Below, piece after piece: positions 17,336 through 53,290 of a stretch of 64,000 nucleotides of DNA (positions are counted from its first letter, which is position 1; each line of letters begins with the position of its first letter). A program made the position numbers and the translations under genes. The DNA is from Abditibacterium sp. (GTDB taxonomy: Bacteria > Armatimonadota > Abditibacteriia > Abditibacteriales > Abditibacteriaceae). The stretch lies in NCBI GenBank assembly GCA_965199495.1, contig CBDASK010000003.1, positions 4,480,001-4,544,000 on the forward strand, in the 5' to 3' direction. The notes under the pieces were generated by a model. That model had not been told where the DNA came from and searched no databases. It saw only the letters and a list, made by a program, of their open reading frames with translations.

Positions 17336-18202
17336 CTATTTTACCGGGCCGCGCTGTGGCAATGGTAGGACGTGAAAACCGGATGACGGTTCGCCCGGCT
17401 TGCCGGGAACGGGCAACGGCATATTGTAGAACGGCTGACCGTTGAACTCGCGTTTTTCCCCGTTGGGCAACGGCTGAAGGCGCCCGAAGTTTTTCGGCCA
17501 GGTAAAATCGGGGGCGATACGTGGCAATGTCCGATCTCGCTCCGACAAAAAAGGGACGCCATCGAACGGAGGCGGAACAACGCGTAAATCTTTGGAAGGC
17601 GGCAGCAAATCGAAGCGCTGCCAGGTGCCATCGGGCATTTGAAAATAATTTGTCGGGCCGTTGGTCACAATGGGTTTAGCGGCGAAGAAATAGGTGCCCG
17701 CCGCCGATTTCCATTTTTCAATCGCTTCGCCACGAATCAGCGCCTCGCTCACATCATCGAACGCGTCGTCTTTGACGGCGTTGAAAATAAACGAACGCGT
17801 TGTGGCCGGAAGAAATTTAATTTCGGGATCGATGACGATGCGAACGCCCAAAACTTTGGCGAGTTGGCGCAACGCCTGACCAGTGTCTTGCCGCACGATT
17901 TCGATGGCGAAATTTGACTTCGACGTTTTCAGCCGCGTGCCCGCCGGTTGGTTCTGATCGAAATGGGGAAAAGATTCGCTGGCATCGGGAAACAATCCCA
18001 ACTGAATTCTATCCTTCTTGTCCACCTGAACGCTCCCGCCATCGCGTCGAGGCGCGAACGCGTCAGGCGCGCGCAGTAGCGGCCCAAAATCAGGGGCGTT
18101 CTTTAGTTGAACGCCGTAATCGTCATCGGCAACGAACTGAGCATTGGCCGTGGCTGCCAATGCAGCCACGGCGGCAAGGGCGATTAAAATTGGGGTTTTC
18201 AT
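17336..18202 (-). CDS. Secreted hypothetical protein, tandem paralog 3
   Basis: Signal MKTPILIALAAVAALAATANAQ; GTYFF and KREFNG motifs shared with neighbours. Confidence 0.85.
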   Translation of the reverse strand: MKTPILIALAAVAALAATANAQFVADDDYGVQLKNAPDFGPLLRAPDAFAPRRDGGSVQVDKKDRIQLGLFPDASESFPHFDQNQPAGTRLKTSKSNFAIEIVRQDTGQALRQLAKVLGVRIVIDPEIKFLPATTRSFIFNAVKDDAFDDVSEALIRGEAIEKWKSAAGTYFFAAKPIVTNGPTNYFQMPDGTWQRFDLLPPSKDLRVVPPPFDGVPFLSERDRTLPRIAPDFTWPKNFGRLQPLPNGEKREFNGQPFYNMPLPVPGKPGEPSSGFHVLPLPQRGPVK

Positions 18203-18210
18203 GTCTTTGG

Positions 18211-18990
18211 TTATTTGGCCAAATCCGATTGAGGCAAACCGGGGATATAATAAAATTCGTGTCCGTTGAACTCGCGCTTTTGCCAGTTCGGTTGCGGCTC
18301 GACGGACCGACCAAAATAATCCTTTGGGTTTAAACCTCCGTTGGGATAAACAAACGGATCATAGCGCGGATCGTTGAGCAACTTTTCGCGTTCAAGTTGA
18401 TACTTCTTTCCTTGTTCGTCCAAATCTTGCATTAGCTTCTCAATCGCGCGATTGGGCACCGCCGCAAAAAAGTATGTGCCCGCCGACGATTTCCACATTT
18501 CAGCGCCGCCGATTTTCAACAAATCTTCCCAAGTCGCGGCGCGCACAACTGCGAGACTATAACGCGAGTTCTTCAATACCGGATCAATTACGGCATTTAT
18601 GCCCATAACCGACGTTATGGTAGCCAAAACATCAAACGTACTTTGGCGTACAATCTCAGCTTGAAAAATCTCGCCGCGATAGGTTTGCAAAACCCGAATT
18701 TTGGTGCCAGCCGCTTGAGCCGTATTGAGCTTTGGATAAGCGGGCAACTTTGGATCAAACATCAACTGAACGTCTAAAGGCAGTTTGTCAAGCGGAATCG
18801 GTAATTCACCTGTCCATTGCGGCGGCACGAACTCTTCACCATTCAACTGAATCGGTGCGTGGAATAATGGGCCAATATTAGGAATATCTCGCAACGGAAC
18901 ACCGTCGTTGTTATTCGGAACTGTTTGCGCGTTCGCCGTGGCTGCCAGAGCAGCCACGGCGCCAAGGGCGAAGAGAATTTGGGTTTTCAT
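18211..18990 (-). CDS. Secreted hypothetical protein, tandem paralog 2
   Basis: Same signal peptide; VMGINAVIDP, GTYFF, KREFNGHEFYYIP. Confidence 0.85.
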   Translation of the reverse strand: MKTQILFALGAVAALAATANAQTVPNNNDGVPLRDIPNIGPLFHAPIQLNGEEFVPPQWTGELPIPLDKLPLDVQLMFDPKLPAYPKLNTAQAAGTKIRVLQTYRGEIFQAEIVRQSTFDVLATITSVMGINAVIDPVLKNSRYSLAVVRAATWEDLLKIGGAEMWKSSAGTYFFAAVPNRAIEKLMQDLDEQGKKYQLEREKLLNDPRYDPFVYPNGGLNPKDYFGRSVEPQPNWQKREFNGHEFYYIPGLPQSDLAK

Positions 18991-19009
18991 GTTGTTGTTT
19001 TTCCTTGAT

Positions 19010-19738
19010 TTATTTGGCCGATTTCGGTTGAGGCAGATTGGGAATATAATAAAATTCGTGGCCGTTAAACTCGCGTTTTTCCCAGTGCGGTTGCGGTTCT
19101 ATCGGTCTTCCCATCCGATCTCTGGGATTTAACCCACCGCGCGGAATTACAAACGGGTCGAAATTTGGGTCTTGTCGCAGTTTTTTTTGTTCAGTGGCGT
19201 AATCGTTAGGTTGTGAACTGTAATTGGATGGAATTTTGAGGTTCAAACCAGTGGGTTTGTCACCGAAAAAATAAGTGCCCGACGGTGATTTCACCATCTC
19301 GACTCCAAAGTTGAACGAAGCCAATAATTCGTCCCAACTCAAACCCCGGAAAACTTGTGTGATAGTGAGTTCCTTTTCGAGTTTTGGATCAATAACAGCG
19401 CGCACGCCCATGACATCGGTAATCTTTTTTAAAATAGCCGCCCGACTTTGTTCGTTGGCTTCGAGCTGAAGAATGTCGCCCTTCAGGCTTTTCAACACGC
19501 TCAATTTTAATTTGTCATTGTTGGCGAATCTACGTTTGGGAACTGGCGGCATTTCAGAACCGAAAAGAGGATTTTGTTCAGAGTGCCCAATCTCAATTGA
19601 AAGGCGAAACGATTCGCCGATGTTGGGAATATCTTTCAATTGAACATTGCCGTTTTTGCTGTCGGCAGTTTGCGCATTTGCCGCGCCCGCCAATGCAGCC
19701 ACGGCGCCCAGGGCGATTAAAATTTGAATTTTCATCAT
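19010..19738 (-). CDS. Secreted hypothetical protein, tandem paralog 1
   Basis: Same signal peptide; VMGVRAVIDP, GTYFF, KREFNGHEFYYIP. Confidence 0.85.
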   Translation of the reverse strand: MMKIQILIALGAVAALAGAANAQTADSKNGNVQLKDIPNIGESFRLSIEIGHSEQNPLFGSEMPPVPKRRFANNDKLKLSVLKSLKGDILQLEANEQSRAAILKKITDVMGVRAVIDPKLEKELTITQVFRGLSWDELLASFNFGVEMVKSPSGTYFFGDKPTGLNLKIPSNYSSQPNDYATEQKKLRQDPNFDPFVIPRGGLNPRDRMGRPIEPQPHWEKREFNGHEFYYIPNLPQPKSAK

Positions 19739-19781: not shown

Positions 19782-19827
19782 GGGCGGCGCCGCACGGGTT
19801 TCAATGCGTTTAAACTTGGCACTTCAA

Positions 19828-21423
19828 ATGGCCGAACCTACCGAAAACGAAATCATCGCCGGACGCCGCGCGCGTCTGGAACAATTGCAAGCCGATGGGC
19901 GCGATCCGTTCGCGCAAACTCGCTTCGAGCGCACGCATTTGGCGGGCGAAATTCACTCGAATTATCCCGAACTCGACGGGCACGACGTGCGCGTGGCTGG
20001 TCGCATCAAGACCAAACGCGGACAAGGCAAAATCTCGTTCGCCGATTTATATGACCCAACCGGCAAAATTCAGGTCGTCGCGCAAATTGATAAATTGGGG
20101 GACGAGAAAATGACCGAATGGCTCAGTTTGGAATTAGGCGATATCGTCGGCATTAGCGGTCAGGTTTTCCAGACCAGACGCGGCGAAACCTCGGTGGCGG
20201 TTTTGGATTTCACATTGCTCGCGACGGCGATTCAGCCGATGCCGGATAAATATCACGGCTTGCAAGATGTCGAACTGCGTTATCGCCAGCGTTACGCGGA
20301 TTTAATCGCCAACGACGAAGTCGTCGAATTGTTCCAAAAGCGCAGCGCCATCGTGCGCGAAATGCGGCGGTTTTTGGACGAGCGCCATTTCATGGAAGTC
20401 GAAACGCCGATGATGCAAGCCATCGCGGGCGGCGCTTCGGCGCGCCCATTTGTGACGCATCACAACGCGCTCGATATGCCGCTTTACCTGCGCATCGCGC
20501 CCGAATTGTATCTCAAGCGTTTGGTCGTCGGCGGGTTGGAGCGCGTTTATGAAATCAATCGCAACTTCCGCAACGAAGGCATCGACACCACGCACAACCC
20601 CGAATTTACTATGATGGAGTGTTATCAGGCGTTCGCCGATTATCACGACATGATGGATTTGACCGAAGCGATGATTAAGCACATCGCGGGCGAGGTCAAC
20701 GGCACAACCGTTATTAATTACGACGACCACGAAATTGATCTGAGCCAAACATGGAAGCGCGCTTCCATGCAGGAATTGGTGCGCGAGAAAATCGGTTTGG
20801 ATTTGAGCGGTTACGCGCTGATTGAGGCGTTCGAGGAACACGTCGAAGGCGAGTTAATCGAGCCGACGTTTGTGATGGATTTTCCGGTGGAAAATTCGCC
20901 ACTCGCCAAGAAAAAAGCCGACGACGAACGGTTTACTTATCGCTTCGAGTTGTTCATCGGCGGCGCCGAAATCGGCAACGCGTTTTCGGAATTGAACGAC
21001 CCGCTCGATCAGGCCGAACGCTTCAAGGCACAGATGAAGGCCAAGGCCAAAGGCGACGAAGAAGCGCAGAGTTATGATACGGATTATCTGCGCGCGCTGC
21101 AATATGGATTGGCGCCATCGGGCGGATTGGGCATCGGCATTGACCGTTTGACGATGCTGCTCACGGGGCAAAACTCGATTCGCGAAGTGATTCTGTTTCC
21201 CTTGCTCAAGCCCGAAATGAACACTGTGGATTCGAGCGCGATTGAAGCCGAATCTTACAACAAGAAAAGAGAGATTCTCACCATCAAATGGAAAAGTGGG
21301 CCGATTTACGCGTATTATGGCGTTGGCCCGAAGGTTTATCGCGAGTTCGAGCAAGCCGAATCGCGCGGCGCGTTTTTGAATGGCGAAATCAAAGGAAAGT
21401 TTGAGGAAGAGAAATTGTTTTGA
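19828..21423 (+). CDS. lysS: Class II lysyl-tRNA synthetase with C-terminal KTSC domain
   Basis: [37 protein letters not shown]; tail [30 protein letters not shown]. Confidence 0.97.
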
Positions 21424-24135: not shown

Positions 24136-25272
24136 ATGTCCGCTCCCAAACCTCTGCTCGTCCTGTTAGTTCCCGCATTTTTGGCCGTGCCCTGCGCGCT
24201 TGTCACCTCGGCCAGCGCACAGGAAAAAACCGCGCCCGCCACTTCTACCGATGCCTCGCTGACCAAAACGGCGAGTCCCGCCACGACAATCGCGCCGCGC
24301 CAGAGTTTGCCCGCGTTTACTTCGGTCAAATTGAGCGTTGCGCCGGTTTTGGCCACGCCAACGACGGCGCGACAAACCCTATTGACGCCGCCTGTGGCTG
24401 TGAAAACGAGCGCGATTAAAGAAGCGGCGTTGCCCGCGCCAGCGCTCAAAGTGCCGGTGGCTGCATGGAGCGCCGCCGAACGCGCGCAATTGGTCACATC
24501 CACGTTAGCTTCGGCAACGCCGCCAATCGTGAAGCAGCGCCGCGCTTTTGCCGCCGCCGTTTCGCTTTCGACTTCGCCAGACACGCCCGTAAAGCTGGCC
24601 CCACAAGTTTCGGTCGCGCCCGAAACAACAGTTGCGGCTCCCGTCAGCGTTTCGGTTATGGCGCCTTTGACGGCGCCCGTGACAGCCCCAGTGGCTGCTG
24701 TGGCGCGGCCCTCGATTTTGGCGTCGCGTGAAGCCCGTGCGCGCGAAGTCGCGCTCGCTCGCATGGACGCCCAACTCGCCGGAGCCGAAGGCCGTCTGGA
24801 TCGCGCGCAATCAAGATTGACCGAGGGCCAGCGCCAACTGGGCAACGTCAGCAACCTGCTGCAAAGCGCGATGCTTTCTTCGGGCGGTAGCGGTCTGCAT
24901 CCGTTCGTGCGCGTAGCGCAGCGTTATCTGGGCACGCCCTATGTTTGGGGCGGCGAGTCGGCGCGCGGCTTCGATTGTTCGGGTTTCATCATGCGCGTGA
25001 TGCGCGATCTGGGCTATAAAGCCCTGCCGCACTCCGCCGCCGAGCAATTCAACTATGGCCAGCCGATTTCCAAAGGCTTGCTCCAGCCCGGCGACATCGT
25101 GTTTTTCGCCAACACCTATAAACCCGGCATCTCGCACGTCGGCATTTATCTGGGCGGCGGACGCTTTATTCACGCCGCCAACTCGCAGGTCGGCACCATC
25201 GAATCGAACCTCAACTCGCCCAAATGGGTCGCGCATTACGCGGGCGCGCGCCGCTTGATGAAAATGAGTTAA
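24136..25272 (+). CDS. Secreted NlpC/P60 (C40) cell-wall peptidase
   Basis: GTPYVWGG..FDCSGF, HVGIY, FIHA; signal peptide and Ala/Pro/Thr linker. Confidence 0.93.
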   Translation: MSAPKPLLVLLVPAFLAVPCALVTSASAQEKTAPATSTDASLTKTASPATTIAPRQSLPAFTSVKLSVAPVLATPTTARQTLLTPPVAVKTSAIKEAALPAPALKVPVAAWSAAERAQLVTSTLASATPPIVKQRRAFAAAVSLSTSPDTPVKLAPQVSVAPETTVAAPVSVSVMAPLTAPVTAPVAAVARPSILASREARAREVALARMDAQLAGAEGRLDRAQSRLTEGQRQLGNVSNLLQSAMLSSGGSGLHPFVRVAQRYLGTPYVWGGESARGFDCSGFIMRVMRDLGYKALPHSAAEQFNYGQPISKGLLQPGDIVFFANTYKPGISHVGIYLGGGRFIHAANSQVGTIESNLNSPKWVAHYAGARRLMKMS

Positions 25273-25308: not shown

Positions 25309-25337
25309 TTGACTGTTTTTCTCGTCTTCTGTATCCT
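25309..25337 (+). promoter_or_regulatory. Promoter of the tRNA pair
   Basis: TTGACT-17 nt-TATCCT just upstream of the first tRNA. Confidence 0.7.
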
Positions 25338-25351
25338 GTTTCCCGTTCCAT

Positions 25352-25424
25352 GCGGAAGTAGCTCAGTTGGTAGAGCATCAGCTTCCCAAGCTGAGGGTCG
25401 CGAGTTCGAGCCTCGTCTTCCGCT
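25352..25424 (+). tRNA. tRNA-Gly(CCC)
   Basis: Full cloverleaf; anticodon arm tcagc-ttCCCaa-gctga; TTCGA T-loop; U73; CCA not encoded. Confidence 0.96.
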
Positions 25425-25470: not shown

Positions 25471-25541
25471 GCGGGAGTAGCTCAGTGTTAGAGCGCCCTT
25501 CGTCCAGAAGGGAAGCATTGGTTCGATTCCCGTCTCCCGCT
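25471..25541 (+). tRNA. Atypical tRNA-Gly(TCC): non-canonical or pseudo-tRNA
   Basis: Perfect acceptor, D and anticodon stems; D-loop lacks GG; G at position 33; mismatched T-stem. Confidence 0.75.
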
Positions 25542-25552
25542 TTTTAGAAATC

Positions 25553-25582
25553 AGCGCGCCGAAAATATCGGCGCGCTTTTTC
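25553..25582 (+). terminator. Terminator after the tRNAs
   Basis: agcgcgccga-aaata-tcggcgcgct followed by T tract. Confidence 0.8.
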
Positions 25583-25641: not shown

Positions 25642-26070
25642 ATGCCCGCGCTCTCGCACGACCGTGACGCGATTTTCACGCGTCCGGTTGCCGTCCAACT
25701 AACTTACAACGACTTCCCCGATTTCTACGCGCTACTGGGCGCCGAACATGACGCGAGCGCCCTTGACATCGAGACCGCCATCGTCGAGCGCGGCGCCGAT
25801 CTGCTGGCCGCCAATTTTTCGCGGCGCGGCGGCAGCGAATTCATTCGGCTCATCGAACGCTACCTCAACGATTTTCGCCCAATTCTGCTCAACGCCGACA
25901 ACCGTCGCCGCTACGACGAACAGTTGGCGCGCCATCGCCATCGCGACGCCAACGCGTTGCCCTACTCCGATTGGCGCGCGCGTTTGCCCGCGCCCCAACC
26001 AGCCACGCCGCCCGCGCGTGGCTGGCGCGCGCGGCTGAGACGCGCATTTTTGGAAAGCGATTATCTTTAA
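25642..26070 (+). CDS. J-domain-like small protein lacking HPD
   Basis: PDFYALLGA..AS and ILLNADNRRRYDEQL resemble J-domain ends. Confidence 0.6.
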   Translation: MPALSHDRDAIFTRPVAVQLTYNDFPDFYALLGAEHDASALDIETAIVERGADLLAANFSRRGGSEFIRLIERYLNDFRPILLNADNRRRYDEQLARHRHRDANALPYSDWRARLPAPQPATPPARGWRARLRRAFLESDYL

Positions 26071-26183
26071 AGTGGCAAGTTTCAGGTGGCAAGTAACAAG
26101 TTGGTAAAAAGCCGCCACAAACGCATACTCTATTGGTTCTTTTTCGCTCCTGCCACCTGAAACCTGACACTTGACACCTGATA
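26070..26183. repeat. Inverted pair of heptamer tandem-repeat tracts
   Basis: AAGTGGC-AAGTTTC-AGGTGGC-AAGTAAC ... CCTGCCA-CCTGAAA-CCTGACA-CTTGACA-CCTGATA. Confidence 0.75.
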
Positions 26184-53208: not shown

Positions 53209-53290
53209 TGGAAATGGCCCGCTCTCCGAACTGTGACCTTCATGGATCGCGTGACTCGCAAGAGTATAGGAAGCGGGCCGAACTCATTTT
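53209..53290 (+). ncRNA. Candidate structured RNA next to the DUF3800 gene
   Basis: Three-way junction with GCAA tetraloop; TATAAT at 53197-53202; ends approximate. Confidence 0.6.

Follow-up and report, generated by a model that had tools for sequence, protein, structure and literature searches.

The window analysed here, a stretch of 64,000 nucleotides from an Abditibacterium sp. genome, carries a tRNA-Gly(UCC) gene, the fourth glycine tRNA of the genome, that is spare, structurally constrained and specific to one clade, with deviations that fall on translation-facing sites. Judged from its sequence, the tRNA encoded by this gene (hereafter the window tRNA) probably hands glycine to a cell-wall-building enzyme and does not serve protein synthesis. 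That it acts as a non-ribosomal glycine donor of some kind is fairly likely, and the narrower reading, in which it is a dedicated glycine donor for peptidoglycan bridging by a Fem transferase, falls slightly short of an even chance.

The gene was described base by base in a first-pass annotation, and re-reading the sequence bears out all of its base-level statements. The acceptor stem holds seven of seven pairs, including G1-C72, C2-G71 and G3-C70, and is followed by U73; the D-stem (4/4 pairs) and anticodon stem (5/5 pairs) are likewise perfect, and C35 and C36 are intact. The D-loop, AGUGUUA (AGTGTTA in the DNA), lacks the GG, and G33 (25502) precedes the UCC anticodon (25503-25505). The T-stem reads A49-U65, U50.G64, U51.C63, G52-C62 and G53-C61, with the T-loop UUCGAUU. 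The annotation's view of this stem as odd is sustained in part: the U51.C63 mismatch is real, but A49-U65 is no deviation, being found in the genome's normal Gly(UCC) as well, and the U50.G64 wobble, though present, is private to the window genome, the other four orthologs having U50-A64. A trait that the annotation missed is the pairing of C32 with G38, which closes in the predicted fold to give a six-pair anticodon stem and a five-base loop. None of the standard elongator traits U33, G18G19 and a paired G51-C63 is found in the window tRNA. The anticodon U-turn depends on U33, and the contact between the D- and T-loops on G18 and G19. Calls were taken from ARAGORN at its default setting; a relaxed run (-ps85) gave 1369 calls, mostly noise. 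Among the genome's calls, a few of which are parsed off register, the window tRNA is the sole case of G at position 33. It scores 47.0 bits against RF00005 (Rfam), rank 58 among the 60 matches listed for the genome, while the adjacent Gly(CCC) scores 70.2. The absent CCA is normal here, since only 7 of the genome's 66 ARAGORN calls have CCA near the 3′ end. DNA contigs of runs X2 and X3 span the gene with their listed differences outside it, which is only a hint; an X4 contig shows an anticodon-loop difference with gaps and is probably another tRNA.

The window genome (G000; 4.8 Mb, three contigs, 95% complete) separately encodes normal Gly(GCC), Gly(UCC) and Gly(CCC) genes, all with GG, U33, C50-G64 and G51-C63, and so the window tRNA is spare, with no codon depending on it. 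The canonical Gly(UCC), for which the first-pass annotation had proposed a search, lies at C3:4190290, so the window gene is not the sole GGA reader. In other parts of the genome, small clusters of extra tRNAs unlike the main set (Gln, Asn, Leu, Glu, Trp, Ala, Tyr and Ser) lie at C3:1551680-1552003, 4061305-4061537 and 4263025-4309380, and may be what is left of a tRNA array. A tRNA-Ile(UAU) call, with an anticodon seldom found in bacteria, lies at C3:4621966-4622040 (-), about 0.5 kb past the fem gene, in a genome that has TilS.

Table 1. Features of the tRNA pair and its surroundings in the window (coordinates are window positions).
Feature	Coordinates	Strand	Evidence and remarks
NlpC/P60 peptidase gene, upstream, context only	24136..25272	+	PF00877, E 2.6e-27
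Sigma-70-like promoter candidate	25309..25337	+	9/12 consensus match
Normal tRNA-Gly(CCC), first gene of a probable two-tRNA transcript	25352..25424	+	ARAGORN, RF00005; identical in G000, G011 and G004
Supernumerary tRNA-Gly(UCC), candidate non-proteinogenic glycine donor	25471..25541	+	ARAGORN, RF00005, sequence; CCA not encoded
D-loop without G18G19 (G18, U19)	25484..25490	+	Sequence; orthologs G18U19 (type A) or A18G19 (type B)
Anticodon loop C32 G33 U34 C35 C36 A37 G38	25501..25507	+	C32-G38 pairable; G33 in the place of the U-turn uridine
T arm: U50.G64 wobble, U51.C63 mismatch, normal UUC T-loop	25517..25533	+	51.63 unpaired in 4/4 distinct orthologs
Intrinsic-terminator-like hairpin, 10 pairs	25553..25577	+	Same stem, altered loop in G011
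142-aa gene, no Pfam family, synteny marker	25642..26070	+	Matched in 23/27 family genomes

The claim that a promoter and terminator bracket the tRNA pair (Table 1) is upheld for the promoter-like site, found once against 0.3 in shuffles, but the hairpin (one against 1.2) is by itself not above chance. Both promoter hexamers are kept in the relative G011, and L239, G004 and L240 have a consensus -10 box in the corresponding position. The position just behind an NlpC/P60 gene was correctly noted, yet this neighbour adds little, because other ORFs intervene between it and the tRNAs in G004 and L239. Among the 23 family genomes with the 142-aa marker gene, the two tRNAs precede it only in G000, G011 and G004. 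The window holds only these two tRNAs in 64 kb and no dense tRNA cluster; no integrase was found among the seven neighbouring proteins scanned, nor a GC step at the locus. Short inverted repeats occur between genes at 26072-26180 of the window and in the tRNA flanks of L239, L240 and L177, some of them adjoining tRNAs.

G011 and G004, the latter of the same genus as the window genome, were found by similarity of the locus sequence, independently of the odd features. A structured Gly-tRNA pattern, which replaced looser patterns with many chance matches, places the spare odd Gly(UCC) in these two and the window genome among 27 family genomes, and a covariance model built from 15 odd tRNAs and applied to 150 candidates in each of the 27 added no odd Gly tRNA to these three, its other high scorers being normal Gly genes. 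Two metagenome contigs, L239 and L240, carry syntenic orthologs; they were found by a pattern demanding the 51.63 mismatch and G38, so those traits are circular there, while the synteny is not. At all five loci the tRNA stands behind Gly(CCC) and ahead of the same 142-aa gene, and a tree of the flanking genes joins them in one clade (98/98); in a Fem tree, G000, G011 and G004 also group together (100/99). The orthologs are of two types. In type A (window, G011, L239), G18U19 is found together with G33 and a UUC T-loop; in type B (G004, L240), A18G19 goes with U33, a UGC T-loop and a C7.A66 mismatch. Common to both are the Gly identity set, U34, C32-G38 (in 4/4 distinct ortholog sequences) and an unpaired 51.63, and all five lack G18G19. 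G1-C72, C2-G71, C35, C36 and U73 are invariant, as are G10 and U16. Pairs 49-65, 50-64 and 51-63 of the T-stem are A-U, U-A and C.C in G011 and L239, and G-C, U-A and C.C in G004. Across 401 genomes of the phylum, a C32-G38 pattern (7-base D-loops) finds three genomes, all of them those of the orthologs, and a 51.63-mismatch pattern finds the same three plus one Arg-type tRNA. Elsewhere, G041 has a Gly tRNA with an extra anticodon-loop base (CCCC; L038:1504-1577), and G015 has a second Gly(CCC) that is degenerate (L012:2721-2793); either may be an assembly error.

The mechanism that we propose would begin with transcription together with tRNA-Gly(CCC), processing and CCA addition, followed by glycine charging by the dimeric GlyRS, as the intact identity elements suggest. 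Loss of G51-C63 would then weaken binding of the charged tRNA to EF-Tu, and it would decode poorly because of G33, of the anticodon loop closed by C32-G38 and of the lost contact between the D- and T-loops. Finally, and least securely, the charged tRNA would stay free for the single Fem protein, which would pass the glycine to the stem peptide of a peptidoglycan precursor. The genome has a dimeric GlyRS (C3:3435417-3436739), and no alpha subunit of the tetrameric form was found in it; DTD is present, as is EF-Tu with its REGGRT motif, in which the Glu has a role. In Table 2 of PMC3239215, A49-U65 is a fairly tight EF-Tu pair, not a weak one. Affinities computed from that source are -10.8 kcal/mol for the genome's normal Gly(UCC), -11.2 for Gly(CCC/GCC) and -9.5 for the staphylococcal non-proteinogenic (NP) stem. 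The window tRNA computes to -10.2 kcal/mol before the 51.63 term, and, the table having no U.C or C.C value at 51-63, its affinity is a range and not a prediction, from -10.0 (U.C taken as A.C) to -9.1 (as A-U).

It is unlikely that the gene is instead an accessory translating reader of GGA and GGG, a backup that is slow, used under stress or resistant to toxins, with an unusual anticodon loop that would let it escape a toxin which cuts or acetylates tRNAs. The invariant UCC anticodon, the U33 of type B and the several other extra tRNA clusters of the genome fit such a role, as does the PemK/MazF-like gene that separates Gly(CCC) from the odd Gly(UCC) in the two loci scanned among L272-L275 of Propionibacteriaceae (below). 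However, several translation-facing sites are broken together, and differently in types A and B; the 51.63-mismatch and C32-G38 patterns each pick the same three orthologs from the phylum; and GG and U33 are retained in most of the further extra tRNAs of the genome. GGA is moreover the rarest Gly codon (7932/83543 in a rough ORF set), and no toxin gene was seen adjoining the window tRNA in the ORF list or the Pfam scan of its neighbours.

The search for Fem, MurM or MprF-type transferases that the first-pass annotation called for turns up both a Fem transferase and an MprF-type operon. The single FemAB-family gene (C3:4620342-4621430; 363 aa) lies about 115 kb from the window tRNA. Its best PDB match is 6snr, a Lipid II:glycine glycyltransferase (E 1.9e-44), and the next are FemX entries, among them the alanine-transferring FemX 3gkr (E 1.8e-28, residues 23-344); because 3gkr also matches, the amino acid that this Fem transfers is unreadable from similarity. 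Its database homologs carry automatic labels, mostly of glycyltransferase and in one case of alanyltransferase. The protein does not have the insert of about 55 residues of 6snr (query residues 246-248 face residues 235-303 of the chain), which is taken to be the coiled coil proposed as the reader of the D- and T-loops of NP tRNAs (PMC7826273). The genome's MurE has a DNPR motif, which is of the diaminopimelate type. Our literature search found no paper on the peptidoglycan of this Abditibacterium clade. Of the 27 family genomes, 26 have Fem but just three the odd tRNA, so that Fem works without this tRNA in the others and does not explain the restriction of the tRNA to a subclade. This wide occurrence, the 115-kb distance, the retention of U34 in all orthologs and the normal UUC T-loop all count against the Fem reading.

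The annotation's proposal of a dedicated glycine donor for envelope or lipid modification is supported in part, a Fem transferase being present, and is weakened on the lipid side. A non-ribosomal donor for some other transferase, be it of the MprF type, an Acetyltransf_6 enzyme acting on lipid or polysaccharide, or an unrecognised enzyme, would draw on the same tRNA evidence as the Fem reading, but we regard it as quite unlikely. The MprF-type operon (C3:4570087-4574228; L232, G000) consists of a separate LPG_synthase_TM gene, an LPG_synthase_C gene and an esterase gene. Its PF09924 gene occurs in G000 and G011 and in 10 of 24 family genomes without the tRNA, and was not found in the tRNA-bearing G004 (92% complete), so MprF was rejected as a partner because its distribution across the family does not fit that of the tRNA. 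Acetyltransf_6 genes occur in 27/27 family genomes, two more lying over the cut-off in the window genome, and none is confined to G000, G011 and G004 among the 27. The gene at C3:1386985 has counterparts across the family, and no listed match in G004 or G011 reaches the length and score of the one at C3:3482096. FemAB_like gave a sub-cut-off match only. The Acetyltransf_6 neighbours of odd tRNAs at L183 and L189 (below), which are not classical Fem proteins, favour a donor of this kind, yet they have no tblastn match in the window genome. A Leu/Phe transferase is present in the genome and was rejected as a partner, since such enzymes are not known to use Gly. At G011:C4:33012-35887 (L233) lie two additional genes of the FemAB/Acetyltransf_6 kind, each some 340 aa long, for which no match of that level is listed in G000 or G004.

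Both of these donor readings, with Fem or with another transferase, require charging. The rules for Gly identity are those given for GlyRS in PMC9976931, which also describes reading of C50-G64 by the Thermus thermophilus enzyme. This pair is absent from the window tRNA, and G004 has the C7.A66 mismatch, both of which would suit an RNA shaped like a tRNA that is charged badly or not at all and acts as a regulator or decoy. We consider this improbable: orthologs with as many as 24 differences in 71 sites share all the main Gly identity elements, and the S. aureus P2 and NP tRNAs, which have U50-A64, are charged (PMC7826273).

The pattern of change among the orthologs points to structural constraint. 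Six of 22 pairs show double changes among the four distinct ortholog sequences, and 94.3% of cells pair against 88.3% in shuffles, none of 500 shuffles reaching 94.3%; five of the six double-changed pairs stem from the single type A/type B split, and so are not independent events across many lineages. The tertiary pair G15-C48 also becomes A15-U48, with both sides changed. Within types, divergence lies far under that of four-fold sites in neighbouring genes: 3/71 against 100/453 for window and G011 (p 1.6e-4), 6/71 against 89/303 for window and L239 (p 1.3e-4), and 0/71 against 36/139 for G004 and L240 (p 9e-8). Between types, it is not below neutral (24/71 against 116/399; Fisher p 0.48), and the 24 changes nevertheless keep 20 of 21 pairs, an outcome of at least 20/21 being reached in 64 of 200000 random trials (P ~3e-4). 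Judged from these comparisons, the window tRNA is under structural constraint, looser than that on translating tRNAs, the normal Gly tRNAs being identical in G000, G011 and G004, and what separates the types is one burst of change or one replacement. A pseudogene or relaxed, slowly decaying duplicate, to which the low Rfam score, the patchy distribution (3/27) and the A/B divergence at neutral level beside unchanged normal Gly tRNAs would point, is largely refuted and deserves very little credence, given the kept pairs and the low within-type divergence beside an inter-tRNA spacer that varies from 28 to 108 bases. The deviations are, as the annotation had asked, conserved in relatives, with compensatory changes and without random decay.

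The donor reading invites comparison with staphylococci, where NP1-NP3 of S. aureus and tRNA-Gly Ia/Ib of S. epidermidis donate to FmhB(FemX), FemA and FemB (PMC7826273, PMC4052509, PMC3239215). Like these, the window tRNA is an extra UCC copy beside normal isoacceptors with its Gly identity kept, as far as sequence alone can tell, and its genome, like its staphylococcal counterparts, has a Fem transferase and a dimeric GlyRS. G18G19 is replaced in the staphylococcal NP tRNAs, by UU or CU in S. aureus (PMC4052509); the window tRNA and its orthologs also lack GG, but with different letters, GU (type A) or AG (type B). The S. aureus NP traits given in PMC7826273 include a six-pair anticodon stem and UGC or UGU for UUC in the T-loop. 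The closed stem and five-base loop recur in the window tRNA and its orthologs; the UGC T-loop recurs in the type B orthologs G004 and L240, while the window tRNA differs in having UUC. The staphylococcal NP T-stem has A49-U65, U50-A64 and A51-U63, whereas the window tRNA loses G51-C63 by a pyrimidine mismatch. Further differences are the single copy in place of three, the G33 of type A, the one short Fem in place of three, the different phylum and a basis in sequence. The window tRNA is 46/71 identical to the staphylococcal-type gene L199, against 54-55/71 to the normal Gly(UCC) of its own family. It is no member of the NP class, because its T-stem, T-loop and sequence lineage differ, and by these comparisons the likeness is probably convergent.

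Other precedents are partial. Table 4 of Schrader and Uhlenbeck (2011; PMC3239215) lists outlier tRNAs that bind EF-Tu weakly and have a second, normal copy, among them Bifidobacterium longum Thr CGU, Sorangium Ala CGC, Helicobacter Glu UUC and Acaryochloris Gly GCC; in the part of that table covered, Gly UCC is not entered for Abditibacterium, Luteococcus or any other bacterium outside the staphylococci. Like these outliers, the window tRNA is spare, has a T-stem for which weak EF-Tu binding is expected and is proposed for a use outside translation, but they were scored from tabulated pairs, and its 51.63 mismatch falls outside the table. The genome's Fem has the short FemX length known from Weissella FemX, S. 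pneumoniae MurM and Streptomyces FemX/VanK. FemX-type transferases without a dedicated tRNA are described as sharing the normal tRNA pool (PMC7826273), and a dedicated tRNA would set the window genome apart from the Weissella FemX, MurM and VanK systems; the 23 family genomes that have Fem and no odd tRNA presumably share the pool likewise.

Similar spare tRNAs occur in other bacteria. A GTDB scan for Gly tRNAs with a pyrimidine at 51 opposite C63 found 26 loci, of which 15 are UCC; C32-G38, for which the pattern did not ask, occurs in 9 of these 15 and in none of the 11 with CCC or GCC. Five Luteococcus records (L179, L182, L188, L194, L195) have an odd Gly(UCC) with A18G19, a type B T-loop, Y51.C63 and C32-G38, and normal GCC, UCC and CCC genes are also present in the 3/3 Luteococcus genomes checked. 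A spare Gly(UCC) without GG and with a UGC T-loop, Y51.C63 and C32-G38 is also found in L237, L238 and L276. From these shared features, this type of gene, which in the eight records lies mostly beside metallophosphoesterase, GT4 glycosyltransferase and PIG-L genes, is the closest parallel to the type B ortholog. The anticodon loop of the window tRNA (G33, C32-G38) recurs together with C51.C63 in tRNA-Gly(UCC) genes beside copper-resistance genes at L235:3046-3115 and L236:4001-4070. Propionibacteriaceae often have glycine-bridged walls, and a pattern search of this family gave at least 11 of 301 genomes with an odd Gly tRNA (two matches each, Arg(CCG) tRNAs also being caught). In L272-L275 (G514, G498, G461, G530), an odd Gly(UCC) with C32-G38 lies some 500-600 bases from Gly(CCC), and in L178 an odd Gly(UCC) follows Gly(CCC) directly. 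Plasmids gave no match to the window tRNA and 35 records at 76-82% to the L236 tRNA; viral contigs gave one staphylococcal-type match with one pattern and none with the mismatch pattern.

Some of these genes stand beside candidate acceptor enzymes. In Propionimicrobium (L186:1795-4614), whose record also has normal Gly tRNAs, an odd Gly(UCC) with C51.C63 and A32-U38 is divergent from murE-femAB, about 180 bases off. Two Acetyltransf_6 genes lie just downstream of an odd Gly-type tRNA with an irregular anticodon arm at L183:3001-6070, and at L189:2979-4223 an Acetyltransf_6 gene, its end probably frameshifted, runs into an odd tRNA of the same strand. No PDB match was found for the proteins of L183 and L189, which are candidates, from sequence and position, for tRNA-dependent glycyltransferases of a new type. 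Fem-like neighbours occur in three of six lineages with a closed or irregular anticodon loop against none of 15 other loci (Fisher p 0.015), or in 3/11 when counted by loci (p 0.06), with groups drawn after seeing the data and a Pfam scan covering selected long ORFs, without L174 and L192. None was found in the five GTDB Luteococcus loci, the Tessaracoccus locus, eight metagenome loci or five further Propionibacteriaceae loci (three of the five scanned with Pfam).

Tentatively, and with rather less than an even chance, dedicated non-ribosomal Gly(UCC) genes may have arisen repeatedly outside staphylococci, in the Abditibacterium subclade, in Luteococcus and other Propionibacteriaceae, in an alphaproteobacterium and in others. 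They would converge on one signature, a closed C32-G38 with G51-C63 lost and often the GG lost and a UGC T-loop gained, and would feed Fem or Fem-like GNAT transferases. If true, this signature could find new tRNA-dependent glycylation pathways from genomes alone. According to the Discussion of PMC7826273 (2020), dedicated cell-wall tRNAs were detected only in S. aureus and S. epidermidis; its supplement has a tRNA tree that may bear on novelty. Our search, mostly of openly accessible literature, found no account of the window tRNA, nor of comparable ones from Abditibacterium or Luteococcus, and no paper on Luteococcus. In PMC4052509, the passage of the substrate past EF-Tu to most Fem and other aminoacyl-tRNA transferases is described as unclear. 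A spare Gly tRNA that is under selection in a distant phylum and comes in two natural versions that break different translation contacts, together with sister genomes that have Fem but not the odd tRNA, offers a direct comparative test, and the same signature in named Luteococcus strains makes experiments practical. Natural tRNAs that are charged yet avoid EF-Tu would also be useful for tRNA engineering.

The window holds several other features. A lysyl-tRNA synthetase-type gene with a fused C-terminal KTSC domain lies at 19804-21423 (-), next to three tandem ORFs (17336-19738, -) with alike signal-peptide starts and C-terminal motifs, one of which was scanned and matched no Pfam family. A DUF3800-IX RNA match is found at 53216-53283 (+), at 47.9 bits (cut-off 36.8).
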